This document shows positions 21,508 through 61,878 of a stretch of DNA of 64,000 nt, one piece after another. Position 1 is the first letter of the stretch, and every line of letters begins with the position of its first letter. The notes beneath the pieces were generated by a model. That model did no database searches, had not been told where the DNA came from, and worked only from the letters and a program-made list of their open reading frames with translations. The stretch comes from Raillietiella orientalis (Eukaryota): the NCBI GenBank assembly GCA_036172245.1, contig JAYWIR010000070.1:372001-436000 (forward strand), in the 5' to 3' direction. The translations under genes were made by a program, and so were the position numbers.

Positions 21508-23350
21508 TTCACCCGGATTTCGCCGGGGCGTTTATTGAAACAATAAACTTTAACAAAGACGTGCAGTGGCTGGACCACTGCTCCAGCCAAGCACGAAGAA
21601 ACACAGAGCCTTCCGGGTCACCGGTTCGCAGACCGGTACGGTCCACCACGGCAGCAGGGGGAAGGGGGAAAAAACAAAAAACAAAACAAAAAAGAAAAGA
21701 AAAGTTGGGAGGGTAAGGAAAGGGATCACAGTTGCTGGTGGGGCCTTTGCATCCTTTGCAGGATGCCGGCAAGCTCCTTCTGTATTCCTGAATCCAGGTG
21801 GGGCCATCGGGACGCCCTCCTTAGGAACTGGGAGGCTGGCTGGATGGCACCCTGGTCGCGTTGTCCTCCCGTAGCCTTGCTCCAGGCGCTGACGATCCCG
21901 CGTAGGCAGCACAAAGCTGCTAACGAGGCCGCAGGCCGAAGGGCGTCGGCAACGAAGAGGGCTTTCAGAGCGTCCCTGGGGTTGCCGCAGGGGATTCCGA
22001 TGGCCGCGGCAAAGCGGAACCAAAGGGGTCGAAGGGCAACACAATCCACTAGCAGGTGGGGGAGGGACTCCATTCCCCACACCTGACACAATTGGGGTTC
22101 ACCGCTTCCCAGGTCCAGTGGTGTCGGAGGGAGTTGCAGGGGAGTCCCGAGTGCTGCAACAGGAGAGCCAACTCCTGCCATTTTAAAGGGAGGGTGGAGG
22201 TGTTCATAAGTAACGGGGCCACTTCAGACGTTCAATGGGAACGTCGAGCAGCACGACCCAGTGCACCACAACTCTGGAACAAGTGCCGACATTCGGAACT
22301 GGAGATGAAGCTCCAGCCGTTCCAATGTCAGGAGGCCGAGACCACCGTCCCGACGCAGAGCGCACAAGTCCTTTAAGTGGACTCGGGCCCTCCCGTTGCC
22401 CCAAAAAACGATACGAAGGGGGTCCTTCGTCCGCTTTTTTATCCTCTCTGTAGGGGGTCAAACAAAAGGCAGAGGTCGGAGGAGAGGAGCCGCGAACGTG
22501 TTCCAAACCGCGGCCCGTTCAAGCAGGAAAAACTTGCCGCCTCGGAACGGGCCGATCGCCGTCTCTACTTCCTGGAGGCAGCCGGACCATGCTTCCGCAG
22601 GGGAGTAGTCCCCCGACGGCACACCAAGGTACTTGAAGTACCTCACCGTGAGGATCCCCAAACGGACCCAGTCCTGCTGCCTGCCCACGCCGCACCAATT
22701 GGTATGACGGACGACTTCGCCCTGTTCACCGTAAGTACGGTTCCCCGATGCAGCAGGTCGAAGAACTCCTCGACCGTTGAAGCCGGGGTGGACATAGGGA
22801 GCAGCAGCAGAAGGTCGTCCGCGTACGCTGAAACGGCAGGCGTACCGGCACAGTCGTGCGGCAGGTGCGCAGAGTTTCCCTGTACGCTCTCAGTACGAAC
22901 TCAAAGTAGGTACTGAAGAGCAAGGGGCTCAGGCTCTCCCTGCCGTATCCCACGCCGCACCGGCACGCCGCGCACGGTCTGCCCGCTGAAAGAAACGTTG
23001 ATGAGCGCGTCGCGCCAGCAGGAGCGCAGATAGGCCACTAATGAGGCCGGAAAGCCTAAGCGTTCCAGAAGGAGATTCTGGTCGACGCAATCGAATGCTT
23101 TGCGCAAGTCGAGTGCGACCGCAAGGGCTCCCTCCCCCACTCGACCATCTGAACCTTTGCCGGCGCACGCAACGGAATTCCGGCTGCGCACTAAGCTCCT
23201 TTCATGTTGGAGCTCTAGCCAGGTGTAAGCGTGGAACAGGTTCGCCTCCATGCTTCGCCCGGGAACAGCATATGTCTGTTGCGGGCTGATGAAGATGTTT
23301 GCAACCCGTCCCAGACGCTCTGCCTAAGCCTTAGCCAGCAACATGGCGTG
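21508..23350 (-). mobile_element. Element B: lineage II, intact 3' end plus internally deleted ORF2 (RT and C-terminus)
   Basis: LDLRKAFD, YADD, KYLGVP and ESLPHLLVDC motifs. Colinear with E but roughly 0.5 kb shorter. AATAAA-hairpin terminus at 21508-21536. Confidence 0.9.
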
Positions 23351-23351
23351 C

Positions 23352-25502
23352 GGACGTGTTTTTTCCGCGATCCTCTGCGCCTGTTGTAAAGCGTTCCTTT
23401 TCGTTAGTGTTTGTGTGTGGAGCATCTGCGGTGTCCAATGGCAGAAATGCCTGAGGACACCGCAATGGAAGTCGGCAAGGGAGAGGATTGTTCCTCTTTC
23501 CAGCCCATAGAGATGAGGCAACCGCCCCCACGGAGACGAGGCAACCGCCTTCTTGAAAAAAGGGGCAACCGCATTCTTGGATCCTTCCTAGGCAATGACG
23601 AATACCTGGAGCGCCGTGACTACAGCACCATCCCCTGAAGCCATTGCCTAACAGTGTGCCTACCGGGATCAAGGGTATAAACCATCCTTGATTTATAAGG
23701 TAGGCAACCTTTTTTTGGAGAACACCGCTCGTAACCTTGAAAGAGAGTTACAGCGGCTGAATGTCGAAGAGGAAGGCCTGGAAGGTCTCTCCGTGATGAG
23801 TGGGGGCCAGCGGGTGAAGCTGACTTGCAAAGATGCAAGTCTGGCTCAGCGCCTGTTGAACACTTCCATCACGCTGGAAGGCCGAAAGGTCTTCCCTGTA
23901 ACGGAGGATCGCTCTATTGTTGCACACCTAACCTGTGTAACTCTTCTCATGACCAAAGCTGGCGTGCAGGAAGAGTTGAAAAACCATAACACGGTGCACG
24001 CGCTCTGGACCAAGCCGAACGTCTTCCAAACATACGGAAGACTGTTCAGTGGCATGGCTGCAGCTCGTGTGACCGTCCACGAAAACGGTGGGCTGCCCCA
24101 CAAACTCGACGTCGGCAACGAGGTCGTCGACGTCTGGTACGTGGGCAAGCCCAAGTACTGTGGGCAGTGTGATGCAACAGGACACCTGAAAAAACGGTGT
24201 TCTCACATCCAGTGTTTCCACTGCAAGGAGAAGGGCCACCTACGGAAAGTGTGCCCAAAGCGGAAACCTCCAGCGCCCTCTGCCTTGAAAAAAGGTAAGG
24301 GGAAACGCTTGGAGAAAACAAGCAAGCCCAAAGAAGCAAAGGAAAGGCCAAGCAAAAAGCCAGAGTCCGAATGCTCCCAGCAAACGGCGGGCGAGAAAAA
24401 TCCCGACGACGCTGGTTACAGCGAGGACTGGCGGACAGCGAAGCCGAAAAGCAAAAAAATCCGAAAAACCGAAGAACCGACAGCGGAACCCGTGACAACT
24501 CCTTTAAATAGAAGGCAACGCCACGCTTTGCTCCGCGAATGTTCGGTCGCTTTGTAGCGAGTAGAGATCCCCGAGACCTCCACCGGGGGAGATATCCCCC
24601 GCCTCGTTGACGCCGAAGCCGCGATCGCGGAAGGAGAACCCTCTGTGCAAACAGAGGGGGAGCCGAGCGACGCGGTCGCCGCAATCGAGGACGCCGCCTT
24701 CCAACAGGCGGCGGAAGAGCTCGCGGCCGAGCTCGCGGAAAGTGAGAACGGCGCGCGAAAAGCCTTGCCAAGCTCGGCCGCGGCCAGGGCACCTCCAACA
24801 GGTGACCACGAACCGGATGCCGGAAGTGCGTCCTCCTCCGCGGAGGCGCCTCCGAAGAAGACTGGACGGAAGTCCAAGAATCCAAAGATGTGCATCCCAA
24901 GAAAGAAGGAGGGGGACGCACCGGCAGCCGAAGGGGAAGCCGGTAGCGTAGGAACGGAGGGAGGGATTTTCCCACCCTGCGCTACCGAGCAGCTGGCGAC
25001 CCCCATGGAGGAGGGGGAGAAGGTAAGTCATTGCCGCCCACTTCCAAAGGTGGAACCTGCTGAGGAGATAGCCATGGAGGAGGGGGAGCAGACAGTTGAC
25101 AACCGCTCCCCCCTGCCGTCCAACGCAGCCGACGATTCGGCCCCCATGGAAGAGAGGGAGCAGGTGCGTGAAACTCGCCCCCTTCCACCGTTGCGGTCCA
25201 CTGAGCAATCGGCGCCCATGGAGGAGGGAGAACCGGTGCGCGGTGCCCCCATTCCTCCATCTGTCCCGCCCGACCAGGTGGCGGGCGCCCCATTGTCACT
25301 TTCGCAGGAATAACACCAGGGTTCGCCTGTCGCCGCCGATTACGCGTGGCCTGCTGGAACGTAAACGTGCTGCGCGACGACGGCAACAGACGGGACACGG
25401 CCGCCACCCTGCGTGACTTCGACCTGGCGCTCCTGCAGGAGATCCACGTGATCACCGCGCAGAACGCCCAGGAGATCGAGACGATCGCAGGGGGTCAACT
25501 GT
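23352..25502 (+). mobile_element. Element C: lineage I-related, intact 5' end, disrupted ORF1 (23438-25313) and start of APE
   Basis: Starts GGACGTG. Knuckles CGQCDATGHLKKRC and CFHCKEKGHLRKVC, PMEEGE repeats, then WNVN..QEIH. Interrupted at GGQL by D1. Confidence 0.92.
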
Positions 25503-27588
25503 TTATCACCCGGGTGCGCCGGAGCGTTTATTGTAAACTATCGGGGGACAGGGTTCATGGACAAAGGAGAAAACAAGAGACGAAGGGGGTGGGATCCCCG
25601 ACACGCAGGTCGGTATGCCGAAAGTCCGTAACGGGAGGGAAGGGACCACAAATACACTACTATAAAAAAATTAAATAAAAATATGGAAGGCAGGGGACAG
25701 GGGTCTTTATCGAGTCCGTTCCTTCCTTTCAAAACCGGCGATGGATGCCGGCGATCTCTCTCCTAACGCCCTGTGGAAGATGGCCCACTCGGCAGCCGAC
25801 GACATGATTGTGCTGGCTAATCCGGTGAATGACGAAGGATGGCCAGCTTCTCCAACCCTCGGTGGGCCTTGTCGATGGCGCGGGTGCAACACACGGTTGC
25901 AACGACAGCACCCAAGACAGGCCGCCTGGCGAGAAGAAGCGGCGCATGAAGTCCCTCGCGGTGTCCCCCTGGTGCAGGAGAGCTCATGCCAGCCCCCGTC
26001 AAAGTCCAAGAAGGGCACCGCAGTCTAGGAGCAGGTCAGCGAGCGTTTCCACTTTCTCGCACCGCTTACAGTTTGGGGAGACAACTCCCCCGGAAACACG
26101 GTTCGTCCGCTGGTTGGAGTGAAAACCCCAATGCACCAGCATGAAGACGTCCTGCTTTCACGAAAGGGGGTACACAGAAGCGTACAAACAGGAGGGAGGG
26201 ACCACAAGTTCTTCGGGGGGCACACTTAAGTGTTCACTCCACCGAAGGGGTCCCTTCGGAACGTGGCGAGGCGTGGCGGCGTCTGCCAGCTCGCAAGTCC
26301 TCTAGCCGCCAATAGGTCGTGTTGTTCCTGCAATGGTGCAGGCGACCTCCCATCTCGCCGGTTCGCAGCTGTCATCTCTTGCCCTGAGGGCTGACAGTAC
26401 GTCGGCGAGCAGCGTGACGGCCAGGCGGGTCCACTTCTCCTGGCTGTTGCACACTTCATCCACCGTGCAGTACGGGGAGAGTTGAGCGCAACGGAGTTCC
26501 AGGAGGGAGACATCCTGGTACTTTGCCCAGCCATGCAACGGTTCCTGCCGCCAGGCTTGAAAGTTCGTTGGGCGGCAGGAGATCCATTCCTAGGCTTCCA
26601 GGAGCCGGTAGAGCGGTTTCAAGGAAAAACCAAAGCTTCTCGTGGCGCGCTCCGCGTGCGGCCGCAGCTACAGAAGTCCATCGCTGCCTGTGCAGCGCCG
26701 CAGAAGCAGGCGCGCGGGTGCGCACCACGGGGTGGAACAAAGGTTGGCGCACAGGGCCAACATCCGAAGCTGCACCTGCAGCTCGATTCTCTCCAGCGTC
26801 AGGATGCCTAAGCCAGCATCCCGACGCGGAGCCGCCAAGTCTTTGAGGCAGATCCTGGACCTCGCAGGTCCCCACAGAGCGTTCCTCAACAGGCTGTGCG
26901 CCTGGAGCTTAGCCGATTAGAGGGTCGGGCAAACAAGAAGCAGGAGGCGCAACAGGGGGGCAACGAAGGTGTTCCATATCGTGGCCCGCACCGGCAGGAC
27001 GAACCTGCCATGGTGGAACGGGCTCAGGGAATTCGGAGCCTTCCGAAGGCAATCCGACCACACTTCCACTGGGCTGATGATCCCCAGCGGAACGCCCAGA
27101 TATTGGGTGGTCGAAGCGTTTGGGATCCCCAGGCGGATCCAGTCAGACTGCCCCTCCCACGCCGCAACAATAGGTACGCCCACGCTCTTGCTCCGGTTTA
27201 AACTCAAGCCCGCTCCCCGGCGAATCAGCTCGAAGAAATCCTCAAGAATGATTGCCGGGGTGGTGATATGTAAGAGCAAAAGGAGGTCGTCAGCATAGGC
27301 TGCCACGAACTGCGTTCCTGGACAAGAGCTCGGCAGGGTGGCCAGCGTCAGCCTGTTCGCTATCAGCACCAACTCAAAGAAGATGCTGAAAAGCAACGGG
27401 CTTAAGCTGTCGCCCTGCCTAATGCCCCGCCGCACCGGCACGCCGTACACGTGGCAGCCGCTCAAAGAGATGGAGATGAGCGCGTAAAGCCAGCAAGCGC
27501 GCAAATACGCCACGAGGTGCACCAAGAGACCAAGACGTTCCAGGAGCTCCAGGAGGAGATCCTGATTTACGCAGTCCAGCGCCTTGCG
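25503..27588 (-). mobile_element. Element D1: lineage III, 3' end and RT/C-terminal half of ORF2 (frameshifted)
   Basis: Closely similar to D2 60015-62106 including the 3'UTR; RQGDSLSP and YADD motifs. Confidence 0.93.
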
Positions 27589-27606
27589 TGCTCCAGGGTA
27601 GACGTG
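27571..27606 (+). promoter_or_regulatory. Putative Inr (GCAGTC, in target DNA) plus DPE (AGACGTG, in element H)
   Basis: A at 27573 and motif at 27600 give +1/+28 spacing. Confidence 0.55.
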
Positions 27607-28786
27607 TTTTCTCGGTGCTCCTCGTGCCAGGAAGTCTCCCCCAGTGCAAGCGTCGTGTGGTTCGGTGGTCAATCAGGCAGCGATGCCTGACGCGACCACC
27701 AGGGATGGCAAGGGGGCAGCGGCAACTCCGCCCCCAGAGGCGATGGAGAGCCAGGGGACGGCGGCAACGTCGCCCCTGGAGGCGATGGAGGTGGGGGCAT
27801 GCGCCCCCACAAAATCGGTCCCCGCTGCAGCGCGGGCGTGGAGCGCCCTTGTGTCGGCGCCATCGCCTGCAGCCGCGACGGAATTGTCGGCCTATGTAGA
27901 GGAGGGGTACAACCCCTCATTGTTCTACAAGGTAGGCAATCTCTATTCTTCAGAGAGCGCGCGCGCCTTTTCGAAGGGCATGCGCGCTGTTGATGTGAAA
28001 GAGGAGGAGCTCAGCGCTATGACCATCTGCAGCGGGGGTCAGTACGTTGAGGTCATCTGCAAGCATGCAGAGCTGGCCCAACGACTGCTCAAAACCCCTG
28101 TTGTGATGGGAACGCGCAGGCTCCTCCCCACTACGGCGGACCGCAGCATGGTGGTCCACCTGTTAGGTGTTACCGCGCGGAAGCGCAAGGAACAGGTTCG
28201 CGCCGCGTTGGAGGAATACGGAACGGTCCACGCGCAGTGGAAGAAAGTTAGTCCTTTCGAGGACTACACGGGGCTGCAACACGGCCTCACTGCTGCGCGC
28301 GTGAACGTTCGGGAGGGCTGCACTCTTCCCCACAAACTGGTGGTGGAAGGCGAAACCGTCGACCTCTGGTATGTGGGGAAGCCGAAATACTGTGGCTTCT
28401 GCAATACGTCGGGCCACCTCAAAAAGAGGTGTCCCAATGTGCAGTGCCAAGTATGCGGCACAATGGGCCACACGAGGGAGGTGTGCCCAAAAGCAGCAGT
28501 GCGGGTGGTTTCCAAGAGAAACCTTAAAAAACGCGCCCGGCTTCTGCAGAAAAGGCTGGCGGCGAAAGCTGCCGCGAAGGCTGTGCCACCCGCGCCCAAG
28601 GCCCAGGCCGCACCCGAGACCTCGGCGAACAACGCCGAACAAGTCGAGAAAACAAGCCAGGAGCCTGGGTGGCAGGTGGCTACGGCCAAAAAATCAAAGA
28701 AGGAGAGGAGGATGGAGAAAAAGCTCGCGTACCGCCAGAAAAAACAGCAGGCAAGCGAGCAAATTAAAGAATGCAGCGTTGTCGTT
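27589..28786 (+). mobile_element. Element H part 1: lineage II, intact 5' end and ORF1 N-terminal part (ATG 27683)
   Basis: AGACGTG at 27600. ORF1 is homologous to F ORF1 with two CCHC knuckles and is cut at ECSVVV by J. Confidence 0.92.
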
Positions 28787-31700
28787 TATTACCCGGTTGC
28801 ACCTGGACGTTTATTATAATATCAACTGAGAACTGTGTTCCCAGGCAAGGAGAACAGAAAATGGGGAGTAGATTTCCCGGAACGCAGTCCGGGCACACTG
28901 AGAGTTCGGAACGGGAGGGGGTGGGACAATAAATAAATAAATTGGGTGGGAGGGCGGGGACAGGGGTACACAGTCTAACCGTTCCTATTCTCAGAACCGG
29001 CGGTGAATGCCGCCGATCTCCGTCCTCACTTCTGCTCCAAGATGTGGCCACCCGGCAGCCATTTGCAGGTTGCAGGCTGCGGTGTCGGGGACCGATGTTG
29101 GGACTGCTCGCATCTGCAATACGTGGCGAGCCCTGACAATGGCGCGGACGCAGCAGATGATTGCGATGACCGCTCCAAGAGAAAGTCCGCCACGCGTGTA
29201 GAAGCGACGCATCCAATCCAGTGCGGTGTATCCAGGGTGCAGGAGCGCTGAAGACAGCCGCTGCCACAGCTCCTGGAGGGCACCGCACTCAAACAGCAAA
29301 TGCGGAAGCGAATCCACAGCTCCGCATTTGGCACAGTTCGGGGACGCAACTCCCCCGGAAATCAGGTGCGCCCGCTGGTTGCAGTACAAACCCCAATGCA
29401 CCAGCAGAAAGCGTCCTGCTTCCACCGAAGGGGGAAGAGAGTAGCGTCCAAACACGCCGAAGGGACCACAAGTTCATCGGTGGGCACCCCGAGGAGCTCA
29501 CTCCACCGGAGAAGCCCCTTTGCAAGAATGCGAGGTGTGGCAGCGTCTGCCACTTCGCAAGTCCGCCAGCCGCCCAGCAGTCGGGTTTCGCCTGCGATTT
29601 CGAAAGTGATCTCCCACCTCGCCGGCAGGTCACTGTCATCTCGCACCATCAGTGCACACAGTGCTTCGGCGAGTGGCGTAGCGACTAGGCGTGTCCACTG
29701 GTCCTGGTTTTCCAGCACCTCCCCCACTGGACAGTATGGGGAAAGTTTCACGCAACGGAGTTCCAAACGGGACACATCCTGTTGCGCTGCCCAGGACGAT
29801 AAGGCTTCCTGCCTCCAGGCGTTGAAGTTCGTCGGCCGGCAGGAGATCCACTCATGCTTTCCCAGAAGAGTGGCGAGCTGCTTCAAAGGGAAGCCGAATC
29901 CTCTCTGGGCGCGCTCCGTGCGCACATGCAACGAACGTAGTCCGTCGCCACCCGTGCTGCGCCGCAGCAGCAGCCGCGCTGGAGCACACCAGGGAGTAGT
30001 CCAGAGCTGCGTACAAAGTGCCAGCATGCGGAACTGCACTAGCAGTCCGATCCGCTCCAGCGTCAGGATGCCCAATCCTGCATCCCGCCGAGGAGCCGCC
30101 AAGTCCTTCAGGCGTATCCTGGACCTCGCCGGTCCCCACAGGGCGTTACGCAACAGGCGTTGCGCCCGGCGCTTAGCCGAGTAGGGAGGGGGACAAACAA
30201 AAAAGAGGGGACGGAGGAGGGGGGCAACGAAAATGTTTCACACGAAACCCGTTCCAACAGGAGAAACCTGCCGCCTTAGAACGGGCCCAGAGCAGTCTCG
30301 GCCTTGTGAAGGCAGTCCGACCACGCTTCTGCTGGACAGAAGGCGCCCAAGGGAACGACGAGGTACTTCAAGCACCTGCCCGTGGGGATCCCCAGGCAAA
30401 TCCAGTCGGACTGCACCTCTCACGTAGAGCCAACCGTTACAACGGTTGATTTCGTCCTGTTGACGCTCAGGCCCGCTCCCCGACGAATGAGCTCGAAGAA
30501 GTCCTCGAGCCTGGACGCCGGGGTGGACATGGGCAGCAGCAGGAGAAGGTCGTCAGCATAGGCGGCCACGGACGGTGTTCCCGAACAGGAGCTCGGCAGG
30601 TTGACCAGCGTCAGCCTGTACCTTCTCAGCACCAACTCAAAGAAGATGCTGAAGAGCAGGGGGCTTGAGCTGTCTCCCTGCCTGATACCCCGCCGTATGG
30701 GAATGCCGTACACGTGGCGCCCGCTGAAAGAGATACAGCATAACGCGTGGCGCCAGCAGGAGCGCAAGTAGGCGATGAGGTGCGTCGGGAGGCCTAGGCG
30801 TCCCAGAAGCTCCAGAAGGAGGTCCTGGTTTACGCTGTCGAACGCTTTGCAGAGATCGACGGCGACCGCTAAGGCTCCCGGGGTTCCATCGTGCCTTGAA
30901 CACCGCCGCTTTCCTTTGGCAGCGGCGATTTCGGCTGCCTGGCTCTGCTGCGCCACGCGCTGCTGCAACTCGAACCATGTTCGCGCGAAGAAGAGATTCG
31001 CGTCCATGGACCGCCCCGGAACAGCATACGTCTGCTCCGGACTTACCAAGGACTCTGCGATTCTCCCCAGGCGCGCACCCATAGCCTGGAGAACAACTTG
31101 ACGTCCGAATTGTCAGTGTTTAGTGTGCACTTCACTGGGAGAACCCAGTGTTTCCCTACAGTAAACATCTTTTTTAAAGACTTCATTATCTAATTTTTGT
31201 AAAAAATTAGAATAATAAATGCCCCGGCATATCCATGTGACAAACTTCGGATGCAGCCGAGCATTCCTGGCCAGCGTCATCGAGGAGACAAGCCGCTCCA
31301 GACTGCTAAACCTGGGGCTCGACCCTGGCCTTATACTCCGCCAGACGCCGGACGTCCGAGCATCGTGAAAAGGTACGCGCCTGCAGATAGGATCTGCTGT
31401 TCGCGACACCCTCCCTGAAGCCGCGGGGAAGCAGGTGCAAGGGGAACCGGCAGCAGAACTCGCGGACCGATCTTTTCAGATCGTCCCAGTCCTCGAGTTC
31501 ACAGATGGCGAAGCCACGGAGGTGTTGGCGGAGATGCTCCGCCGCCTCCGAATTGCTAAGCCAGTCGGCCGGCAACCTCCAGACATTCATCGGAGGCCCT
31601 TTGCCAGGCGGGAGGAGCTCGAACTCCAGTCTAGGATGATCCGAAATCGCGGACAGCAGGCGCCCTCTCCGACCTACTCGTAAGAGCAGGTGTTCAACGA

Positions 31701-34323: not shown

Positions 34324-34534
34324 GTGCACCGTCGTCGTCGAGCGTATTCCCGACGCTGCGAAAAAGAACTCGCCGCTACCGACGACAATCCCTCTGTTGA
34401 CTCTGTCAACAGCGAGGAGAGCGAGCCGGCGGCGGCGTCCGTCATCGACACCACCATCGATGACGTAGCCTTCGCGCGAGCCTCGGAGGAGCTGGCAGCC
34501 TCGTTGCAGCCAGCCCCCTCCGCGGCCAGTAGGA
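34324..34534 (+). mobile_element. Element H part 2: continuation of lineage II ORF1 after J
   Basis: Resumes CTVVVERIP..AAASVIDTTIDDVAFARASEELAASLQP, homologous to F ORF1 51180-51390. Confidence 0.88.
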
Positions 34535-34620
34535 GGACGTGTTTTTCCTTCACTCCCCAAAGAGTAGTAGGAAAGCGCTTTTTCTTCTGTGTGGTGTTTT
34601 GTGTACATCGTCGGTGTCCA

Positions 34621-39967: not shown

Positions 39968-40148
39968 TCCCTTCCCTGCCCTCCAACTTCTTTTTGTCTG
40001 TTTATTTTTTTTATTTTTCTTTTTGTTTTATCCCCATCCCCCTTCGCTGCTGAGGAACGCTACGCTGGGCTGCGTCCCGGTGTCCCGGCAGGTCCAGTGC
40101 ATATGGCTGTGAGCGGGGCCTAGTACCGCGGATGTAGAGTTTTTTAAA

Positions 40149-40179
40149 AATAAACGCCCCGGGCGTACCCGGGTGTAAA
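40149..40179 (+). terminator. Conserved element 3' terminus: AATAAA plus GC hairpin (representative of nine copies)
   Basis: aataaacgcCCCGGGcgtaCCCGGGtgtaaa; equivalents at 21508, 25503, 28787, 31214, 42832, 47013, 52648 and 62077. Confidence 0.75.
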
Positions 40180-40197
40180 CCTCCACGGCCAACTGGA

Positions 40198-42830: not shown

Positions 42831-42831
42831 A

Positions 42832-45800: not shown

Positions 45801-47012
45801 GAAGCGGTCCCAGTCCTGAAGTGTCTGCATCCTGAAGCTCCGAATAAACGCACGGAGGTGCTCCGCCGAGCCGGGAAACTTCAGCCAGTCCCCTGGCAGA
45901 CGCCACGCTGACGAGGGGGGCCCCCGTGGCGCGGATGGATCTCGAGGACTAGCGGGCGATGGTCGAACAGCTCGCACGGTAACTTGCCGCGCCTGCCCAC
46001 GCGAGGGCACATGTGCTCGTCAAGAAACACGTGGTGAATGCTGTTTTCCATCCGCGGTGCACTGGCCAACAAATTACTGGTGTGCACCGCCATGCACTCC
46101 TCGTTGTCCAGGTCACGCTCGGGTTTCTGTCCATCTGGTTTCAGGCGAACGTTAAAATCGCCTGCAACAGGATGGGCATCCCGCACGCCTGCTTTGGTCA
46201 GCCAGTCTCTACGGAGAGCAAGGAAAATCACTTTCCTCTCCCTCCTAGTCATCAGGTCTGCGCCGCTCGGTGCGTACACGTTCGTTACGATCAGATCGAT
46301 CGAGTCGGACCACCTGAGAGTCAGCTGGCCGACACCACCGTCATCGTCGAACCGCACGTTATGAGATGCGGCCTCGACGGATGGCCGAAGCAGGTAGGCG
46401 ACACCGCAACTTTTCGCTATCCCACACCTGTACCATAGTCGCCCTCCGGAGATCCGTCCGATCTCTTCCGCTTGTTCTGCAGAGATCACGTGGATCTCCT
46501 ACAGCAGCGCAAGGTCGTAGGGCTCTAGAAGGGCGGATATGTCTCGTCTCCTGCCGGCGTCTGTCATGCCGTTCACGTTCCAAACGGCGATGCGCAGACG
46601 ACGGCGGGAGGAGATTCCCGGCATTACTGCTGCGAAGATTAAGATGTGGAAGAGCCCGCCTCTTGCGAGGCAGGCGGGATGTCCATGGGGGTTTCGGCCT
46701 TTTCAGGCACCTGAGGCACCTGTTCGGCCTCCTCCCCCATCTAGAACCCTCCATCCGTGTCATTGCGTGGGAGTCTCTCGGGCGACGGGTCCCGAGAGTT
46801 TCCCACGCTCATGGCACCCTCGCTTGCGGAAGCCATCTCTTCCCCTTCGACGGGGGAGACAAGCTTCCTTGGCTTTGTGGACTCACGTCCAGCCTTCTTG
46901 CGGGGTGCCGTGGAAACGGAGGCTGCGCTTCCAGCCTCCACCTCGGGGTCGGAAGTGGGGGACTCCTGAGGGGAGGCCGGACGCCTTACGGCCTTCTTGC
47001 CAGCCTTGGAGG
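42832..47012 (-). mobile_element. Element E: lineage II, 3' end, frameshifted ORF2 (46624-43045) and ORF1 C-terminus
   Basis: TAATG overlap at 46626-46622; APE, RT and CVRCRERE motifs. Cut in ORF1 at SKAGKK by a3. Confidence 0.93.
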
Positions 47013-50000
47013 TTTACACCCGGGTACGCCCGGGGCGTTTATTGGTAAAACTCTACATCGGCGGTACAAGGCCCCGCTCACGGCCATATGCACTGGACCT
47101 GCCAGGACGCCGGGACGCAGCCCAGCGTAGCGTTCCTCAGCAGCGAAGAGGGATGGGGATAAAACAAAAAGAAAAATAAAAAATAAACAGACAAAAAAAG
47201 AAGTTGGAGGGCAGGGTTGGAGGATCACTAAACGCTGTGAGGAGGGCCCATCCGTTGAAGGCAGCCCTCGAGGTCCGTCCGTATATTCCCCAGTTGGGTC
47301 CATCCGGCAGCTCTCCGCATGAAGCGTTGGGTGTATGGGATGACATCCCTCGCGTGTGGACCCACTCCTTCGTTATTGGCGTCGCTCCATGCCGCCACGA
47401 CGCCACGGACACAGTACAAGGCTGCGATGGCTGCGTCTGGCTGCAGTGCGTCCTTCACGAAGAGGGGCCGAAGAACGTCTCTGGGGGTGCTGCCCGTAGG
47501 GAGCCCGAGGGTCGCCCCGAACCGTTCCCAGAGGGGTCGGATGGCAGCACAGTTCACAATAAGCTGGGAGAGCGATTCCCGCTCTCCGCACCTGAAACAC
47601 TCAGGATCCACAGCTCCCCTTGTCCAGTGAAAGCGGCGTGCGTTGCAGGGTAAACCCCAGTGCGGCAGTAGCAACGCCGACTCTTGCCACTTAAGGGGCA
47701 GGATCCTGGATTCCTTCAGTACCGGGGGCCACTTCAGCACATCCGTAGGGATGGCGAGCAGCTCGCCCCATCTCATCAATCCACGAGGCTGGACGCTCGG
47801 GGTCGTGACGTCCGCCAGTTCTCCTGTGGTCCAGCCGCTCAACATCTTCTCCCTGCCTGCGATCTGGCAGGTGACTTGCCACCTCGGCTTCTGGCGATCC
47901 TGAAGCGCCCTCAGGAGGTAGGGCATCGCCGTAGCAAGGCAAGTCGTCCACGCTCACCTGCGACTCCGGGGAAATTCGAGTATTTCCCGCAGGATGCGGT
48001 TGGCGTATGGGCGGATTCGCAGGCAGTTCACATGGTTTTCACTCCTCCGGTTCTGCTTAGCCCATGTGCCAGCAGACTCCTCCAACCAGGCGGAGGAGTT
48101 GGCGGGGCCAGAAACCATCCAACCGTTCGTCTTCGCCAAGGCTGCTATGCGTATGAGCATAAGGCCTCATCTTCGGATCTTCCGGCCAGGACACAGAAGA
48201 AACGACGCGAATCCTTCGCATCGGGACACACGCCTGCAGAGGAGGCGGGCCGGAACGCACCAAGGGGTGCTCCACATCTTCGCTGCGATGGCGAGGGTTC
48301 GCATCCGCAGCTGGATTTCCTCGCGCTCCAGCGTCAGGAGGCCAAGGCCGCCGTCCAGACGCGGAACGCACAAATCCTTCAGAGGGACTCGGGGCCTCCC
48401 CTTGCTTCAAAGGGCTATGCGGAGGAGGTCCTTTGTCCTCTTTTTGCATTCTCTGGGGGCGGGGCAAACAAAAAGCAAGAAGCGGAGGATGGGGGCCGCA
48501 AAAGCGTTCCAAACCGCGGCCCGTTCCGGCAAGTGAAACTTGCCTTCCAGGAACGGGCCGATCGCCGTCTCGACTTTTTGGAGGCAGCTGGACCACGCTT
48601 CCGCAGGTGAGTAGTCCCCCAACAGCACATCAAGGTACTTCAGGCACCTCGCCGTGGGTATCCCCAGACGGACCAAGTCCTGCTGCCCTGCCCACGCCGC
48701 ACCTACTGGCACCACCGACGACTTCGCCCTGTTGACCTGCAGTCCGGTCCCGCGGATGAGCAGATCGAAGAAGTCTCCGACCGCCTTCGCCGGGGTGGAC
48801 ATAGGTAACAGAAGCAGAAGGTCGTCGGCATAGGCTGCTACGGCGGGCGTGCCGGGACACGAGCTCGGCAAGGAGGCCAAAGGCACCCTGTAGGCCTTCA
48901 GCACCAACTCAAAGTAGGTGCTGAAGAGCAGGGGACTGAGGCTATCACCCTGCCTGGTGCCCCGCCGCACCGGCACGCCATACAACTTCTGAATACTGAA
49001 AGAGATGGAGATAATCGCATTCCGCCAGCAAGAGCGCAGGTAGGTAATCAAGGAGGGTGGGAAGCCCATGCGACTTAGGAGCTCCAACAAAAGCTCCTGG
49101 TCAACACAGTCGAACGCCTTATGGAGATCGACTGCGAGCGCTAAGGCCCCCTTCCCCGCCCGGGAGTCCATTCCCTGCCCTGCTGGCGGCCCCAAAGTGG
49201 GGTTGCCGATTTTTCCTTTCTTTTCCTTTTGACACCTCTGCGGGTGCATCCATGTGCTCGCGAAGAAGAGGTTGGCATCCATACTTCGCCCGGGAACATC
49301 ATATGTCTGCTCCGGGCTAATAATGGATTCTGCCTCCTGCCCCAGACGCGAAGCCGATAGCCCGGCAACCAACTTGGCGTCCGTATTCACAATCGTGATC
49401 GGACGCCAGTTGTTCAAATTCCTAAGGTCTCCCCCTTTCGGAAGGAGCCTCACTCTGGCTGACCGAAACGAGGCGGGAACATCGCTTCGTCTCGGATCAG
49501 CCTTGTCAGCTGAAGCAGCAGGGGTGCCAGCTCTTCCGCGAAGCTCTGATAGAACTCCGCGGGCAAGCCGTCTTCCCCTGGAGCTTTCCGCCTCTTGAGC
49601 CTTTTGATACCGGCGAGAATTTCGGCTGTGGTAAAAGGCTCATCGAGGCTTAACGACTTCTCCTCCCCTATTGCCGCGGCACCATCCAAAAGCAAGAGCC
49701 GAGAGGCATCTTGATCCGGAAGCGCCCTGGCGTAAAGGGAGGAATAATAACTCCGCACGAGATGCCGTACCGACGCCGGGGACGAACATTCCCGGCCCTG
49801 GTCGTCCAGCAAGCTGGCCGACCCGGATTGCCAGGCTTGGCGTTCGTCCCCGGCACGGTACTCGGCCAGGCGACGGACATTAGGGGTTCTCTCGTACCTA
49901 CGAGCCTGTAAATAGGCCCGATGGTTGCGAGCACCCTCGCCGAATCCGGGGGGCAGGCGATCCAGGAGGAACTGCTTGCAGAACTCCCGGACCGATTCCT

Positions 50001-50034
50001 TAAAAAGGTCCCAGTCCTGGAGATTCCGGAGCGT
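47013..50034 (-). mobile_element. Element a3: lineage I, 3' end and ORF2 downstream of APE (disrupted)
   Basis: Near-identical to a1 37157-40179 in reverse orientation. Confidence 0.94.
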
Positions 50035-50046
50035 CGAGCGGACGTG
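50011..50046 (+). promoter_or_regulatory. Putative Inr (CCAGTC, in target DNA) plus DPE (GGACGTG, in element F) core promoter
   Basis: A at 50013 and motif at 50040 give +1/+28 spacing, matching the Drosophila Inr TCAKTY / DPE RGWCGTG geometry. Function inferred. Confidence 0.6.
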
Positions 50047-52647
50047 TCTTTTCGTTGCTCCTGAGTTCCATTTCCGTTGGTGCTTGTGCGTGGTGTGGGT
50101 GGAGGATTAGGCAGAAATGCCTGATACCACCACCGGTGAGGATCCGGGGGCGATGACCTCATTGCCCCTTGAGCAGATGGAGGTGGAGGCTCCCGCATCA
50201 GTGGAGGCACCCGCCAGCACGGATGCGCCCCCGGCCCTACCCAGGGCTTGGAACGCCGTGGCTGCGGCACCTACGCCAGCGGCTATGGCGGAAATGCGCG
50301 CTTACCTGGAGGAAAGGTATAACCCACCCCTCCTATATAAGGTAGGCGGTTTATATTCTTCCGAGAACACGCGCGCCTTTTCGCAGGCGATGCGCGTTCT
50401 CGGTGTACAGAAAGAGGAGCTTCTGGCTATGTCCGTCAGAAGCGGGGGTCAATTTGTGGAAGTTATCTGCAAGGAGGCAACTCTTGCGCAAAGACTTCTG
50501 CGAACCCCCGTAATTATGGGCAGCCGGAGGCTTCTCCCCATTACTGAAGACCGGTCGGTGATCATTCACCTGACCGGTATCACGTTCCCGATGACGAAGG
50601 AGGCCGTCCGGAACGAATTAGAAAAATCTGCAACTGTCCACGCGCTGTGGGGAAAGCCTACTCGTTTTGTCGATTACGACGGGGTGCTTGGCGGCCTGGG
50701 TGCAGCGCGAGTGACGGTTCGCGAAGGATGTGAGTTTCCCCACAAACTCAGCGTCAACGGTGAATCCGTTGACGTGTGGTACGTGGGGGAACCCAAGTAT
50801 TGCGGCTGCTGCAGCAGCTTCGGTCACCTTAAAATGAGGTGTCCGAGCGTGCAGTGCCAGCAATGCAAACAAGCGGGGCACACCCGTCTGGTGTGCCCCC
50901 AAAACACAGTCCGCGTAGTGTCCGCGAAAAACGCGAGAATGCGCGCGGCTAAAAAGAGAAAGAAGCTGGCAACTCGTGCTGCTGCTAAGGAGGTCACATC
51001 CGCCACCAAGGCGAAGGCCAGCCCCGAGACCCCGGCGAAAACCGCCGAAAAGGTCGAGGGCGAGGGTCAAGAGCCAGGGTGGCAGAAGGTCGACCCCAAG
51101 AAAAACTCCCATAAGAAGGGAAAGAACGTGGCGAAACGGAGCGAAACCGCTCTGCGTCGCGAAAAAATTAAAAGCTGCTGCGTCGTTGTAGAGCGGATTC
51201 CCGCCATCGACGAATGCGGCGCTAAAGAACTCGCTGCTGCCCCTGCTCAACCCTCCGTTGACAAAGTCAACAAGGAGGGGAGCGAGGCGGCGGCGTCCGT
51301 CATCGAGCCCACGCTCGATGACGTCGCCTTCGAGCGCGCCGCGGAGGAGCTGGCTGCCTCGCTGCAGCCGGTTGCCCCCAAGGCTGGCAAGAAGGCCGTC
51401 AGGCGTCCGGCTTCCCCTCAAGAGTCGGCCACTTTCGACCCCGAGGTGAAGGCTGGAAACACAGCATCCATCTCCGCGGCACCCCGCAAAAAGGCAGGAC
51501 GAAAGTCCACAATGCTCCGGAAGATCGTCTCCCCCGACGAAGGGGAAGAGATGGCTTCCGGTAGCGAAGGTGCCATGAGCGTGGGAAACTCCCGGGACCC
51601 GTCGCCCGAGAGAATTCCACGCTCGGACACGGAGGGGATGGTGAGGATGGAGGACGAACAGGTACCCCAGGCGCCTGAAGAGGCCTCCGTCCTCGTACCG
51701 ATGGACCTGTCCTACACCTGCCCCGCGGCAGGTGCCGCGACGCCACTTTCCCAGCCATAATGCCGGGAATCGCCTCTCCCCGTCGTCTTCTGATCACCTG
51801 TTGGAACGTGAACGGGCTAAGCGACGACGGCAAGAGGCGTGACGTGGCCGCCACCCTGGCATCCTCCGACCTGGTGCTGCTGCAGGAGATCCATGTGATC
51901 TCCGCAGATCAAGCCCGGGAGATCGAACGGATCTCGGATGGGCGGCTGTTGTGGCGTTGCGGCACCTCGAAATCAAGCGGTGTCGCCTTCCTGCTTCGGC
52001 CAGCCATCGAGACCGCAATAAAGGACGTTCGGTTCGATGACGCAGGTCGCGTCGGTCAGCTGACTCTCAGCTGGTCCGACTCTATCAACCTGGTCGTCAC
52101 CAACCTATACGCTCCTAGCGGAAACAACGCGTTGAGGGCGAAGGCAAGAAGGGAATTCTACCTTGCCCTGAGACGCGATTGGCTGACCGATGCAGGAGTT
52201 CGCAAAGCGGACCTGATTGCAGGTGATTTCAACCTGCGCCTGCTTTCAGGTGCGCCGGATACACTGAACAACCGCGTCAAAGAGTTGGGCGCAGAAATGA
52301 ACGCGCGCAACTTGTTGGCCGGGGACACGGCCATGGAAAGCAGCATCGATCACGTGTACCTTGACCAGCACCTATGATCTCGGGTGGGCAGGCGCGTAAA
52401 GGTACCATCCGAGCTGTCGGACCATGGTCGGATCATGTTCAAATGCGTCCGCGCGACAAGGGCCCCCCCTCGTCAGCGTGGCGTCTGCCAGGGGACTGGC
52501 TGAAGTTTCCCGACGCAATGGAGCACCTCCGCGAGTTTATTCGGAGCTTCAGGATGCAGACACTTCAGGACTGGGACCGCTTCAAGCGGTCGGTCCAGGA
52601 GTTTTGCGACCAGTTCCCCCTGCATCGCCTACCTGAGGGATTTGGGG
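50035..52647 (+). mobile_element. Element F: lineage II, intact 5' end, ORF1 and APE; interrupted by G
   Basis: GGACGTG at 50040; TAATG overlap at 51758-51762; cut at LPEGFG. Confidence 0.93.
50117..51760 (+). CDS. F ORF1, intact (547 aa) gag-like protein
   Basis: Open frame with knuckles CGCCSSFGHLKMRC and CQQCKQAGHTRLVC. Confidence 0.9.
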   Translation: MPDTTTGEDPGAMTSLPLEQMEVEAPASVEAPASTDAPPALPRAWNAVAAAPTPAAMAEMRAYLEERYNPPLLYKVGGLYSSENTRAFSQAMRVLGVQKEELLAMSVRSGGQFVEVICKEATLAQRLLRTPVIMGSRRLLPITEDRSVIIHLTGITFPMTKEAVRNELEKSATVHALWGKPTRFVDYDGVLGGLGAARVTVREGCEFPHKLSVNGESVDVWYVGEPKYCGCCSSFGHLKMRCPSVQCQQCKQAGHTRLVCPQNTVRVVSAKNARMRAAKKRKKLATRAAAKEVTSATKAKASPETPAKTAEKVEGEGQEPGWQKVDPKKNSHKKGKNVAKRSETALRREKIKSCCVVVERIPAIDECGAKELAAAPAQPSVDKVNKEGSEAAASVIEPTLDDVAFERAAEELAASLQPVAPKAGKKAVRRPASPQESATFDPEVKAGNTASISAAPRKKAGRKSTMLRKIVSPDEGEEMASGSEGAMSVGNSRDPSPERIPRSDTEGMVRMEDEQVPQAPEEASVLVPMDLSYTCPAAGAATPLSQP

Positions 52648-55600
52648 TGTCCACCTGGGTACTCCCGTGGCGTTTATTGTATAAAACTCTACAAGAAAAC
52701 GTGGTACAAGGCCCCACTAACGGCCACACAACACCGGACCTGCCGGGACGCCGGGACGCAGCCCAGCGTGACGCTCTTCGCCAGTGGAGGGGGATGGGGA
52801 TCAAAACAAAATTAAAAAATGAAAATAAAGGAAAACAAAAAGAGTTTGGAGGGAGGGGAAAGAATCACGTTCCACTTAGAGGAGGGTCCAACCCTCGCAG
52901 GATGCCCTCCAGGTCCATCTTCATGCTTCCCAGATGGGGCCATCTCGCTGCTCTCCGCATGAAGCAGACCGCATACGGGATGACATCCCTCACGTTGGCA
53001 TCCACTTCTTCGTCGCGAATGTCGCTCCATGCCGCCACGATGCCCCGGATATAGCAGAGGGCTGGGAGGGCTGCGGCAGGCTGCAGGGCGTCACGCACGA
53101 AGAGGGGCCGAAGAACGTCTCTGGGCGCTCTGCTTGTTGGGAGCCCGAAGGTCGTCCCGAACCGTTCCCACAGGGGACGGAGGGCAGCACAGTCAACTAG
53201 TAGGTGGGGAAGCGATTTGTGCTCTCCACACCTTGCACACTCAGGCCTTACACTCCCCCGCATCCAGTGGAAGCGGCGCGCGTTGCAGGGTAGACCCCAG
53301 TGCAACAGTAGCAGCCCCGACTCTTGCCACTTCAGGGGGAGAAGCCTGGATCCTATCAGATTGGGGGCCACTTGAGGTCATCCGTCGGGATGCCGAGCAG
53401 CTCGCCCCATCGACGAAGTCCACGAGGAAGGGTACTCGGGGTCGTGGCATCCGCCAGTTCTCCCATGGTCCAACCGCTCATCTTCTTCTCCTTGCCTGCA
53501 ATTCGGCAGGAGACTTGCCACTTTGGCTTGCGGCTGCTTGTTAAAGCCCTTCGGAGAAAGGGCAGGGTCGAAGCTAGAGGGGTGATCTCCGCCCACGTGC
53601 TCCTGGCGGGACACTCCAGAGTAGTCCGCAGTGTGCAGCGGGCGTTGGGGCCGAATCGCAGGCGGTTCCAGTCCGGGGAAGTCTGGAGGTTCAACTTGGC
53701 CCACGTCGCAACTGATTCCTCCAGCCAGGCGAAGAAGTTGGCGGGGCCGCATACCGTCCAGCCGTTGTTTCTGACCAGGGCTTCCATGCGCCCAAGAAAA
53801 GGCCACATCTTCTCACCTTCCTGCCGGAGCACAGGAGGTACGACGCGAGTCCTTGCGTCCTGGACACACGGCTGGCGAGGATTCGGGCCGGAATGCACCA
53901 AGGGGTGCTCCATGACTTTGCTGCGATGGCGAGGGTGCGCCATCGCAGCTGTATTTCCAGGCGCTTTAGCGTCAGGAGGCCGAGACCGCCGTCCCGACGA
54001 GGAGCGCATAAATCATCCAGAGGCACACGTGGCCTCCCGCTGCCCCAGAGGGCGATGCGGAGTATGTCTTTTGTCCTCTTTTTAATGTCACGGTGGACGG
54101 GGCACACAAAAAGCAGGGAACGGAGGATGGAAGCCGCGAAGGCGTTCCACACCGCGGCCCGTTCCGGCAGAAGGAACTTGCATTCCAGGAACGGGCCGAT
54201 TGCCAACTCTACCTTCTCGAGACGACCTGACCAGGCTTCTGCGAGGCAGAAGTCCCCCAACGGGACACCCAGGTACTTCAGGTACCTGGCCGTTGGGATC
54301 CCCAAGCGGATCCAGTCAGGCCGTCCGACCCACGTCGCACCCACCGGTACGACCGACGACTTCGCCTTGTTTACCCGCAGTCCAGTCCCACGACTTAGCA
54401 GATCGAAGAAATCCTCGACTGCGGCTTCCGAGGCGGACATGGGCAGCATGAGCAGAAGATCGACGGCGTATGCTGCAACGGCAAGCGTGCCGGGGCACGA
54501 GCTGGGCAGGGCAGCCAAAGTCACCCTGTACGCTCTCAGCACCAACTCAAAGTAGGTGCTGAAGAGCAGGGGACTGAGGCTATCGCCCTGCCGTATGCCC
54601 CGCCGCACCTGCACGCCGAACACCTGTTGGCTGGAAAAGACGATGTTGACAATGGCATTGCGCCAGCATGAGCGCAGGTAGGAGAGAACGGAGCTTGGGA
54701 AGCCCATGCGACCCTGGAGCTCCAACAGTAGCTCCAGGTCTACGCAGTCGAACGCCTTGTGGAGATCGACCGCGATCGCTAGGGCTCCCTTCCCAGCCCG
54801 GGTATCTATTCCCAGCCCACCTGGCGGTTCCAAAGTGGGGTTGCCAATCTTTCCCCCTGTGTCGTTCAGGCAGCGCTGCACATGGAACCATGTGCTCTCG
54901 AAGAACAGGTTGGCATCCATACTTCGCCCGGGAACAGCGTACGTCTGCTCCGGGCTAATTATGGAGTCTGCCACCTGTCCTAGACGCAAAGCCCACAGTC
55001 CAGCGATCAGCTTGGCGTCCGTATTCACGATTGTGATCGGACGCCAATTGCCCAAGAATCTCAGGTCTCCTCCCTTCGGGAGGAGCCTCACACGGGCTGA
55101 CCGAAACGAGGCGGGAACGTCGCCTTCGTCTCGGATCAGCCCGGTCAACTGAAGCACCAGGGGTGCCAGCTCTGCCGCGAAACATTGAAAGAATTCCGCA
55201 GGCAGGCCGTCTTACCCTGGCGCCTTTCGCCTCTTGAGCCTTTTAAAACCGGCGAGAATTTCACCGGTAGAAAAAGGCTCGTCGAGGCTGATCTTCTCCT
55301 CTTCCCCTATTGCCGGGGCTCCATCCGAAAGCAGGAGCCGCGAGGCGTTCCGCTCTGGGGGTGCCCTAGCGTAGAAAGAGGAGTAATAACGTCGCACGAG
55401 GTGCCTGATCGCGGGTGGTGCGGATCGCTCCCGGCCCTGGTCGTCCAGCAAGCTGGCCGACCCGGATTGCCAGGCTTGGCGTTCGGCCCCGGCTCGATAT
55501 TCCGCGAGGCGACGGACATTCGGGGTCCTCTCGTACCGGCGGGCCTGTAGATAAGCCCGATGGTTCCGAGCCCCCTCCCCGAATCCGGGGGGCAGGCGGT

Positions 55601-56282
55601 GCAGGGGAAACTCCTCGCAGAACTCGCGGAACGAGGCCTTGAAGAGGTCCCAGTCTTGGAGACTGCGGAGGGTGACACCTCTTAGGATTTCGCGAAGGTG
55701 TTCTTTCGCACCTGTGAGCTGCGTCCAGTCCCCAGGCAGCCGCCACGCCCTGGACGGGGGTCCTTTGTCGCGCGGGCAAACCTCGGCGATGATCCTGGAA
55801 TGGTTCGACAGCGTCGACGCAACTTTTCCCCGTTTGCAAACCCGCGAGCACAGGTCGACATCCAGGAAGAAGTGGTCGATGCTGCGGTCCATTCCCTCCG
55901 CGTCTGCCAACAAGTTGCGCGTGCGCATGGCAGCGCAAAACTCGTTGGCCGTGCGTTCTTGTGCTTCGGGCTCACCTGACAGCAGACGGAGATTGAAGTC
56001 TCCAGCTATCAGGTGTGCCTTCCGCACATTCGTGTCGGCCAGCCAATCGCGCTTCAAGGTTTCCAGCAGCCTGGTACGGTCGCTGTATCCCCCTTTTCCG
56101 CTCGGGGCGTACACGTTCGTGACGATCAATTCGATCGAGTCGGACCAGCTGAGAATCAGCTGACCGACCCTACCGTCGTTATCGAAGCGTACGCCCTTCA
56201 CGGCAGCGTCGATGGCCGGCTTGACGAAGAACGCGACCCAGCAGGTGTTGCGGGCGCCGCATCGCCAATACAGTCGACCCCC
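52648..56282 (-). mobile_element. Element G, 3' part: lineage I subfamily, ORF2 from GGRLYW to the 3' end
   Basis: Homologous to a1 ORF2 and 3'UTR; frameshifted. Confidence 0.93.
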
Positions 56283-56372
56283 TCCATTGTTCGGACGTGC
56301 ATTCTTGCGCTCCGTCTTTGGTGCTTCTTTGCGGTTGTTCCTTTTGGGTGCGGTGGGATTTTTCATTTGGAA

Positions 56373-58310: not shown

Positions 58311-58315
58311 CAGCA

Positions 58316-61300: not shown

Positions 61301-61878
61301 TGGAAGACTTGCGAGCTGGCGGACGCCGCCACGCCTCGCCACGTTCCGAAGGGACTCCTTCGGTGGAGCGAACACTTAAGTGTGCCCCCCGAAGAACTTG
61401 TGGTCCCTCCCTCTTGTCTGAACACTTCTGTGTTCCCCCTTTCGTGGAAGCAGGATGTGATTATGCTGGTGCATTGGGGTTTTCACTCCAACCAGCGCAC
61501 GAACCTTGTTTCCGGGGGAGTCGTCTCCCCAAACTGTAAGCGGTGCGGGGAAGTGGAAACGCTCTCGCACCTGCTCCTGGACTGTGGTGCCCTTCTAGGA
61601 CTCTGGCGGAGGCTGGCCTCAGCTCTCCTGCACCAGGGGGACACCGCGAGGGAGTTGATGCGCCGCTTCTTCACGCCAGGCGGCCTGTCATTGGGTGCTG
61701 TCGTTGCAACCGTGTGTTGCACCCGCGCCATCGCAAGGCCCACCGAGAGTTGGAGAAGCTGGCCATCCTTCGTCAGCCCACCGGATTAGCCAGCGCAAAC
61801 ATGTCGTCGGCTGCCCAGTGGGCCCATCTGCCACAGGGCGTAAGGAGAGAGATCGCCGGCATCCATCGCCGGTTTTGA
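58316..61878 (+). pseudogene. D2 ORF2: APE-RT-CCHC with stops at 59311 and 59728 and a late frameshift
   Basis: WNVNGL, QEIH, GDFN, SDH, DLRKAFD, YADD, CKRCGEVETLSHLLLDC. Confidence 0.92.

Follow-up and report, generated by a model that had tools for sequence, protein, structure and literature searches.

Three LINE lineages of Raillietiella orientalis insert into one another at recurrent sites and share a DPE-like word at their 5′ ends

Clusters consisting only of nested long interspersed nuclear elements (LINEs) are known from green algae, where the L1-type elements Zepp and ZeppL form such clusters with a higher G+C content than their surroundings. Zepp has 61% G+C compared to 53% for the genome (PMC3446292), and ZeppL clusters are found at the centromeres of Chlamydomonas and at putative centromeres of green algae (PMC8226300; bioRxiv 10.1101/2025.03.28.645958). 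A nest that is similar by description only was identified in Raillietiella orientalis, in a stretch of 64,000 nucleotides (assembly GCA_036172245.1, contig JAYWIR010000070.1, positions 372,001 to 436,000 of the forward strand), which is called the window below. Self-BLAST and tblastn showed that positions 20874-64000 of the window consist of LINE sequence only, in at least 14 pieces belonging to three lineages. Each element is inserted within the preceding one, to a depth of at least 10 levels in 43 kb, and the nest has a G+C content of ∼60% compared to 34-52% in the left part of the window. The three lineages each home to short conserved sequences in the coding regions of the others, and this reciprocal, sequence-specific nesting is solidly established by the copies themselves.

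The excerpts of the Zepp accounts mention neither sequence-specific reciprocal targeting nor a conserved word at the 5′ end, and the lack of a poly(A) tail in the nest copies is listed as a further difference from Zepp. Reciprocal targeting between LINE lineages was not met in the excerpted literature, which did not cover the original Zepp reports. In these excerpts, the nested LINE clusters known from algal centromeres are not put down to reciprocal targeting of specific sequences. If it were a general phenomenon, targeting of this kind would be a simple mechanism by which a cluster can grow without harming genes.

Recurrent insertion at one sequence, as observed here, is also known for R1 and R2 in the 28S ribosomal DNA and for elements of the Tx1 clade, which are found in multicopy genes or in transposons. 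The endonuclease of R2 is restriction-like, in contrast to the apurinic-type (APE) endonucleases. Compared to R1, R2 and Tx1, the elements described here target LINEs of different lineages within their own nest, each lineage uses several sites, and the targeting is reciprocal. Compared to R2, the 5′ junctions in the nest carry variable extra bases and no ribozyme was found: with Rfam, no ribozyme family was detected in the window at the gathering score, and none at E ≤1 around the ends of J/a1 and D1 (elements described below).

By domain content the nest elements are APE-type LINEs that are L1/Tx1-like, with an apurinic-type endonuclease (EN) followed by a reverse transcriptase (RT) in the second open reading frame (ORF2). 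In Pfam searches, Exo_endo_phos (5.6e-14 to 2.1e-17) and RVT_1 (down to 4.2e-22) were identified, together with a CCHC motif in ORF1 and a weak, C-terminal zf-RVT match. The closest relative of ORF2 is a JGI metagenome protein with 67% identity, and named relatives from fish, frog and plants have about 20-30% identity. The order of the pieces was derived from self-BLAST, from tblastn in which the proteins of a1, an intact copy, served as queries, and from the conserved termini. Lineage A comprises a1, a2 and A′, which are 95% alike, and H2 (80%); lineage D2 comprises D2, D2′ and P, which are 90-92% alike, and J (about 74%); lineage M comprises M, K (82%), D1 (76.3%) and B (about 68%). Element C is left unassigned.

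The same host site was used by four pairs of independent insertions. In the first pair, M (42832-47012, minus strand) lies antisense in a2 (40198-42831, plus strand), the 5′ part of an A-family LINE with 94.8% identity to a1, at the site coding for the linker between EN and RT. D1 (50040-52647, plus strand), the 5′ part of a LINE with 76.3% identity to M, lies antisense at the same linker site in A′ (47013-50034, minus strand), the 3′ part of an A-family LINE with 95.0% identity to a1. The 3′ end of M is followed by host sequence starting with TGGAGATTCCGGAGCGT, and the 5′ flank of D1 ends in the same 17 bases. Within this pair the hosts are 95% identical and the inserts 76.3%.

The second pair consists of K in P and B in D2′. 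P (20874-21505, plus strand) is a 5′-truncated D2-type LINE with 90% identity to D2 59388-60030; it is the outermost element and forms the left edge of the nest, and its end is set by the 3′ terminus of K. K (21506-23350, minus strand) is the 3′ part of an M-type LINE with tblastn matches to RT, lies antisense in P, and has a 3′ terminus ending in CCGGGTGAAAA, after which the host continues as TCTAACGCCTTGCG. B (27600-28785, resuming at 34325-34534, plus strand) is a LINE of the M superfamily with ORF1 matches, starts with AGACGTG and is interrupted by J; both of its pieces align end to end on D1 51010-51396. The 5′ flank of B ends in TCCAGCGCCTTGCG, which gives a host overlap of 14 bp within the pair. 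Because K and B do not overlap, the independence of this pair rests on the nest model.

In the third pair, a1/a2 in B and A′ in M occupy homologous sites in ORF1 that start with CCTCC, and the uninterrupted D1 shows that these bases belong to the host. Here a1 (34535-40179, plus strand) is a full-length A-family LINE with CCHC in ORF1, APE endonuclease, RT and zf-RVT (Pfam) that is inserted in sense orientation in ORF1 of B, and A′ lies in sense orientation in ORF1 of M. The fourth pair is formed by D2 in H2 and D2′ in C, with the common junction ACAGT(C/T)GACCCCC. D2 (56293-62106, plus strand) is a full-length LINE antisense in H2 (52648-56282, resuming at 62107-64000, minus strand), which is itself the 3′ part of an A-like LINE with 80% identity to a1, antisense in D1. 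D2′ (25503-27588, minus strand), the 3′ part of a D2-type LINE that matches D2 60017-62106, lies antisense at the EN site of C (23352-25502, plus strand). C is the 5′ part of a LINE with CCHC in ORF1 and the start of EN; it begins with GGACGTG at 23352 and lies antisense in K, and this host aligns to M until 23350. The inserts of the fourth pair are 92.2% identical, and the adjoining host parts 85.8%, then 58.5%. Since the identities of hosts and inserts differ within each pair, block duplication is excluded for M/D1 and D2/D2′.

Target-site duplications (TSDs) with both copies visible were found for D2 (13 bp, ACAGTCGACCCCC at 56270-56282 and 62107-62119), for J (14 bp with 2 mismatches, 28772-28785 and 34325-34338) and for a1 (12-18 bp). 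J (28786-34323, minus strand) is a full-length D2-like LINE antisense in B, with 1 extra base at 34324. The 3′ flanks are clean host sequence, with 0 mismatches in the first 76 bases after M and 1-3 in the first 26-42 after the others. Reuse of a site was also seen in a DNA sequencing run of a related genome (X1, word share of 0.23 with the window), in which a contig joins 42218 to 42837 via TTATC and thereby shows a further 3′ end of D2/M type at the same EN site. In 9 of 12 cases the insert runs antisense to its host, and the three sense insertions are all of the A family. At every 5′ end the host is another LINE copy and never ordinary DNA. Because the hosts are other LINEs with recurrent shared sites, the upstream flanks of the elements are lineage-specific target sequences.

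An inversion that would make P and D2′, or a2 and A′, the two parts of a single element was rejected, as M and D1 overlap at 76.3% identity and are distinct elements; it would in addition need breakpoints exactly on element termini. Twin priming does not produce this arrangement.

The antisense insertions of M in a2, of D1 in A′ and of H2 in D1 all lie within ∼90 bases of the EN-RT linker of ORF2, and this region (37157-37260 in a1, with its counterparts in a2, A′ and D1) has the look of a hot spot. In X1, many pieces with 88-99% similarity to 34201-54200 were found, and one joint runs from the 3′ end of an A-like copy, at 40175, into M-like sequence in antisense orientation at 45762, near the site of H2 in D1, which suggests reuse of that site.

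At their 3′ ends, all eight visible copies end with AATAAACG...CC(G/A)GGT followed by exactly five bases (for example at 40135-40179 and 62062-62106). None of these eight ends has a poly(A) or simple-repeat tail; the number of terminal A residues is 1-4, and 4 occur only in K. Close to the 3′ ends there is an AATAAA signal, as well as a short G+C stem (CCCGG...CCGGG). No compensatory change was observed in any of the seven pairs of the predicted stem, and the stem region may be an RNA feature recognised by the reverse transcriptase.

The first-pass annotation of this locus had reported the word RGACGTG, 0-11 non-host bases from the host junction, at the 5′ ends of the seven elements C, B, J, a1, a2, D1 and D2, and this was borne out at all seven. 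In the whole window, 22 matches to the word were counted compared to 14.55 ± 3.55 expected, and 4 of 100 shuffles reached 22. When the seven ends were aligned, homology began at an invariant GACGTG block and nothing was conserved upstream of it. RGACGTG(Y) is thus the first word of the full-length element in 7/7 cases and across the three lineages. It is followed by a very short 5′ untranslated region, with ∼90 bases ahead of the ATG of ORF1. The titles listed by a literature search for this word in retrotransposons were all unrelated.

The bases between host and motif, here called filler, were recognised by comparison with homologous copies that are not interrupted, or with the other copy of the TSD, and their lengths agreed with those given earlier: 11 for B, 5 for D1, 10 for D2, 1 for J, at most 2 for C, and 0 or 6 for a1/a2. 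The filler of B (27589-27599, TGCTCCAGGGT, between host D2′ and B) replaces GAGATCGACCG of the uninterrupted D2, that of D1 (50035-50039, CGAGC) stands where a1 has GACGC, and that of D2 (56283-56292) is TCCATTGTTC, with the right flank going on as CGCGATCGCC. In B, D1 and D2 the fillers directly adjoin RGACGTG and are unlike the host versions, with identities of 1/11 for B and 3/10 for D2. For the fillers of B and D2, no other copy or reverse complement was found in the window.

The copies are read here as products of a nest of mutually targeting APE-type LINEs whose RNA starts at RGACGTG, a reading given about an even chance. Target-primed reverse transcription would place each lineage in a target sequence of its own, ∼20-30 bp long, within coding sequence of another lineage and mostly on the antisense strand, generating TSDs of 12-18 bp. 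The template RNA would begin at RGACGTG or within a few bases of it, and the motif would belong to an internal promoter by which the start is set to the first base of the element. The 1-11 unrelated bases before the motif would be untemplated or microhomology-derived additions, as are usual at LINE 5′ junctions, and a CAG found 27 bases upstream of the motif would belong to the target sequences of two lineages and not be a functional initiator. A start at RGACGTG is favoured because homology begins there and unrelated filler adjoins it. With a start 27 bases further upstream, a stretch of that length from the old flank would be expected in new copies; in all seven, however, conservation begins at RGACGTG. 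The clean 3′ flanks and the lack of a ribozyme match in the searches described above point the same way. Variable 5′ junctions like those in the nest have been described for R2 lineages in which the RNA extends only to the element boundary (PMC3774820). What can be read directly from the window is the anatomy of the elements, the reuse of target sites, the TSDs and where the 5′ boundary lies.

Several observations weigh against an RNA start at RGACGTG, which is itself deduced from the structure of the inserted copies only. The first concerns the motif. In the Drosophila LINEs Doc, F, G, I and jockey, an extended downstream promoter element (DPE) with the consensus A/G-G-A/T-C-G-T-G/T-C/T is located at about +29 to +36 (PMC1636488). 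All seven ends of the nest elements match this consensus at 8/8 positions, and the chance for one fixed 8-mer to do so is 1 in 4096. As the seven ends are homologous, the match counts as one evolutionary observation. The DPE word is therefore common to the fly LINEs and all seven ends, with two differences. In the fly elements the start site and the DPE both lie inside the element, whereas here the word forms the first 8 bases and nothing is conserved upstream; the fly elements are of the jockey/I kind and have an initiator (Inr), whereas the nest elements are L1/Tx1-like and the fly Inr was found in none of the seven flanks.

The second observation concerns the CAG. The first-pass annotation had placed an A of Inr-like words exactly 27 bases upstream of the motif, and these letters could be located in three flanks: gcAgtc for B (27571-27576, A at 27573), ccAgtc for D1 (50011-50016, A at 50013) and gcAgcc for a1 (34506-34511, A at 34508; in ORF1 sequence of B that aligns with CTGCAGCC of D1). 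For D2, the A is at -26 (56267), one base off as noted earlier, and the a1/a2 version of the site reads gccagta. CAG with A at -27 is thus present in B, D1 and a1 only (3/7 flanks, or 3/6 sites, since a1 and a2 have a site in common); the flanks of C, J and a2 show no fit. With offset and motif prespecified, at least 3/7 would be reached with P = 3.2e-4 for CAG (frequency of 0.0213 in the nest) and with P of about 1e-3 for CA[GT]. When neither word nor offset was prespecified and offsets -45 to -10 were scanned, some 3-mer was common to at least three members in 1615 of 5000 sets of seven flanks drawn at random from the nest, and a 5-mer was common to two members in 2659 of 5000. It is concluded that the CAG at -27 is weak and not confirmed beyond chance. 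Inr consensus words are TCA[GT]T[CT] and YYANWYY. The first occurs at -27 in none of the seven flanks and the second only in that of D1, so that the identification of these sites as initiators is not supported. In the target of B, the homologous place of D2 reads gcAatc, and this second uninterrupted copy has CAATCG where the flank of B has CAGTCC. The ccAgtc of D1 belongs to CCCAGTCC, a coding motif that all seven copies compared (A, A′, H2, M, D1, D2 and J) have in conserved form on their antisense strand. CAG as a word that marks the nick site of the endonuclease was considered and is not supported, as the nick lies 2-12 bases downstream at a variable distance.

The third observation concerns the register of the targets. 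The earlier statement that the spacing is kept while the filler differs was borne out, and it extends to similar flanks lying in register with RGACGTG. Among flanks of the same lineage at different host sites, those of B and D1 agree at 14/30 positions in register (14 is reached by 1.45% of random pairs) and those of J and D2 at 16/30 at a shift of 1 (0.85% of random pairs, best of 5 shifts); B-D1, J-D2 and a1-a2 are the three best of 21 flank pairs. When the uninterrupted host versions were compared, B/D1 agreed at 16/30 at shift 0, the best of 25 shifts (others at most 14), and D2/J at 16/30 at shift +1, the best of 17 shifts (others at most 10). For random pairs, P(≥16/30) is 0.0019 at one fixed shift. 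The host ends differ by 6 bases for B/D1 and about 8 for D2/J, and the inferred nick positions by 3 and 7. Because the fillers (11 vs 5; 10 vs 1) offset these differences of the host ends, the target register with RGACGTG is kept, and host end plus filler adds up to 30 for B, 30 for D1, 30 for D2 and 29 for J. Such a kept register is not predicted by untemplated filler. It would be explicable by a leader carried on the RNA and resolved through homology, or by chance at about the 1% level, which is a rough and uncomputed estimate.

That the DPE likeness, the CAG at -27 and the register are all chance in a small and related sample, with RGACGTG kept for a reason other than transcription, such as recognition of the cDNA end in second-strand synthesis, is regarded as very unlikely. 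Such a view agrees with the homology of the ends, which reduces the DPE match to one evolutionary observation, and with the 3-mer sharing equalled in 1615/5000 random flank sets. It has to account for a register that is the single best shift in both lineages (16/30 compared to at most 14 at 24 other shifts, and 16/30 compared to at most 10 at 16) and for the low probability of such a score in random pairs at one fixed shift.

The last of these observations concerns the duplications. The 18-mers that flank a1 (34517-34534 and 40180-40197) differ at 4/18 positions, even though a1 and a2 are 94.8% alike, and the TSD copies of J differ at 2/14. The downstream 18-mer of a1 is the spacer between a1 and a2, CCTCCACGGCCAACTGGA. 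Its mismatches may be due to 3′ read-through, with the 3′ end of the RNA carrying target sequence of the parent locus. At its own site, A′ has CCTCCA where the uninterrupted homologue has CCCCCA, which may have the same cause.

The kept register and the mismatched duplication could also be understood if the RNA started ∼27 bases upstream of RGACGTG, with the motif acting as DPE at +28. The RNA would then carry a leader of parent target sequence, the end of the cDNA would anneal to the new upstream target, homology would resolve the junction, and the filler would be a remnant of the parent leader. DPE function is documented in animals. This alternative is considered unlikely, although it would account for the exact fit to the DPE in 7/7 copies, for CAG with A at -27 in 3/7 flanks, for sums of 30, 30, 30 and 29 despite differing host ends and fillers, and for 18-mers around a1 that are equal in length yet match at only 14/18 positions. 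The site-specific insertion that it requires is real, and RNA keeping upstream 28S sequence together with homology-assisted 5′ joining, as proposed for R2, provides a precedent (PMC3774820). On the other side, 4/7 flanks lack CAG at -27, the fly Inr is found in 0/7 and YYANWYY in 1/7. The fillers next to RGACGTG match no host version of the target (1/11 for B, 3/10 for D2), and a1/a2 are least alike in the 8 motif-proximal bases (5/8), although an inherited leader would be expected to agree best there. Hints of a foreign segment of 27 bases did not reach significance: in the flank of C, K and M agreed at 15/25 in the last window, and 60 of 1050 windows were as low; in the flank of B, where D2′ was compared with D2, 326 of 2074 windows were as low.

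The first-pass annotation had gone further and proposed that the core promoter is split, the element supplying the DPE and the target the Inr, so that the promoter is assembled only upon insertion at the correct target. Defined targets, a kept spacing and a DPE match at 7/7 ends were confirmed, and the Inr at -27, poor and present in 3/7 only, was not; the evidence from the copies leans against a split core promoter, which is judged doubtful. A stronger form, in which the target supplies or renews the initiator half at every jump and only correctly targeted copies stay transcribable, appears quite unlikely. Because each lineage homes to a matching sequence in another lineage, the leader would anneal at the new target and be partly rewritten with each jump. 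If true, promoter integrity would be tied to target choice, the mutual feeding of three lineages in a single nest would be explained, and a mobile element would have a new way to couple its expression to correct integration. The DPE-like first word and the fixed register make the nest a testable case for target-dependent transcription. A promoter supplied by a neighbour is an idea shared with HeT-A, for which Danilevskaya and co-workers reportedly placed the promoter in the 3′ end of the upstream copy in 1997, and a2 lies head-to-tail behind a1. In HeT-A, however, the whole promoter is in the upstream 3′ end, whereas here it would be half a core promoter, and the neighbours are mostly antisense coding sequence.

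An RNA start at RGACGTG by means of an internal promoter also has to be compared with transcription from outside. The elements could lack a complete promoter of their own and be transcribed from the upstream host LINE or the nest, with the RNA cut, or reverse transcription stopping, at RGACGTG, which would then be a processing or integration signal and not a DPE. Strict insertion into other repeats and the ∼90 bases before the ATG of ORF1 fit such read-through, R1, R2 and some Tx1-mobilised elements depend on their targets in this way, and flank-driven transcription has precedents in target-specific retroposons (PMC4494074, PMC3774820), among them retroposons at one Mariner position that lie in the opposite direction and are perhaps transcribed from Mariner (PMC4494074). 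It is nevertheless judged very unlikely, as the Rfam searches described above yielded no match to an HDV-like or other ribozyme. The sense promoter of a host cannot drive an insert that lies antisense to it, as 9/12 do, and an antisense promoter in the host has no evidence in its favour.

Relatives of the nest elements were searched for more widely. A metagenome scan with the conserved 3′ word yielded 119 loci, none of which had LINE similarity by tblastn or blastn, and a search with ORF2 found no relative among viral contigs and prokaryote genome contigs. A search of sequencing runs listed X1, a DNA run, as the only one and no RNA run. In the contigs of X1, no joint at 5′ ends was present among the matches listed.

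At 20874, the left edge of the nest, the 5′-truncated P abuts non-LINE DNA of lower G+C content. None of 10 ORFs of this left flank had a Pfam family. A stretch of 34-37% G+C contains an open frame of 269 aa (9572-10381) with a high content of K, E, S and P; no Pfam family and no match among longer proteins were found for it, and it may be an exon of an unknown gene. For CpG, the ratio of observed to expected amounts to 0.64-0.84 in the flank compared to 0.89-0.99 in the nest.

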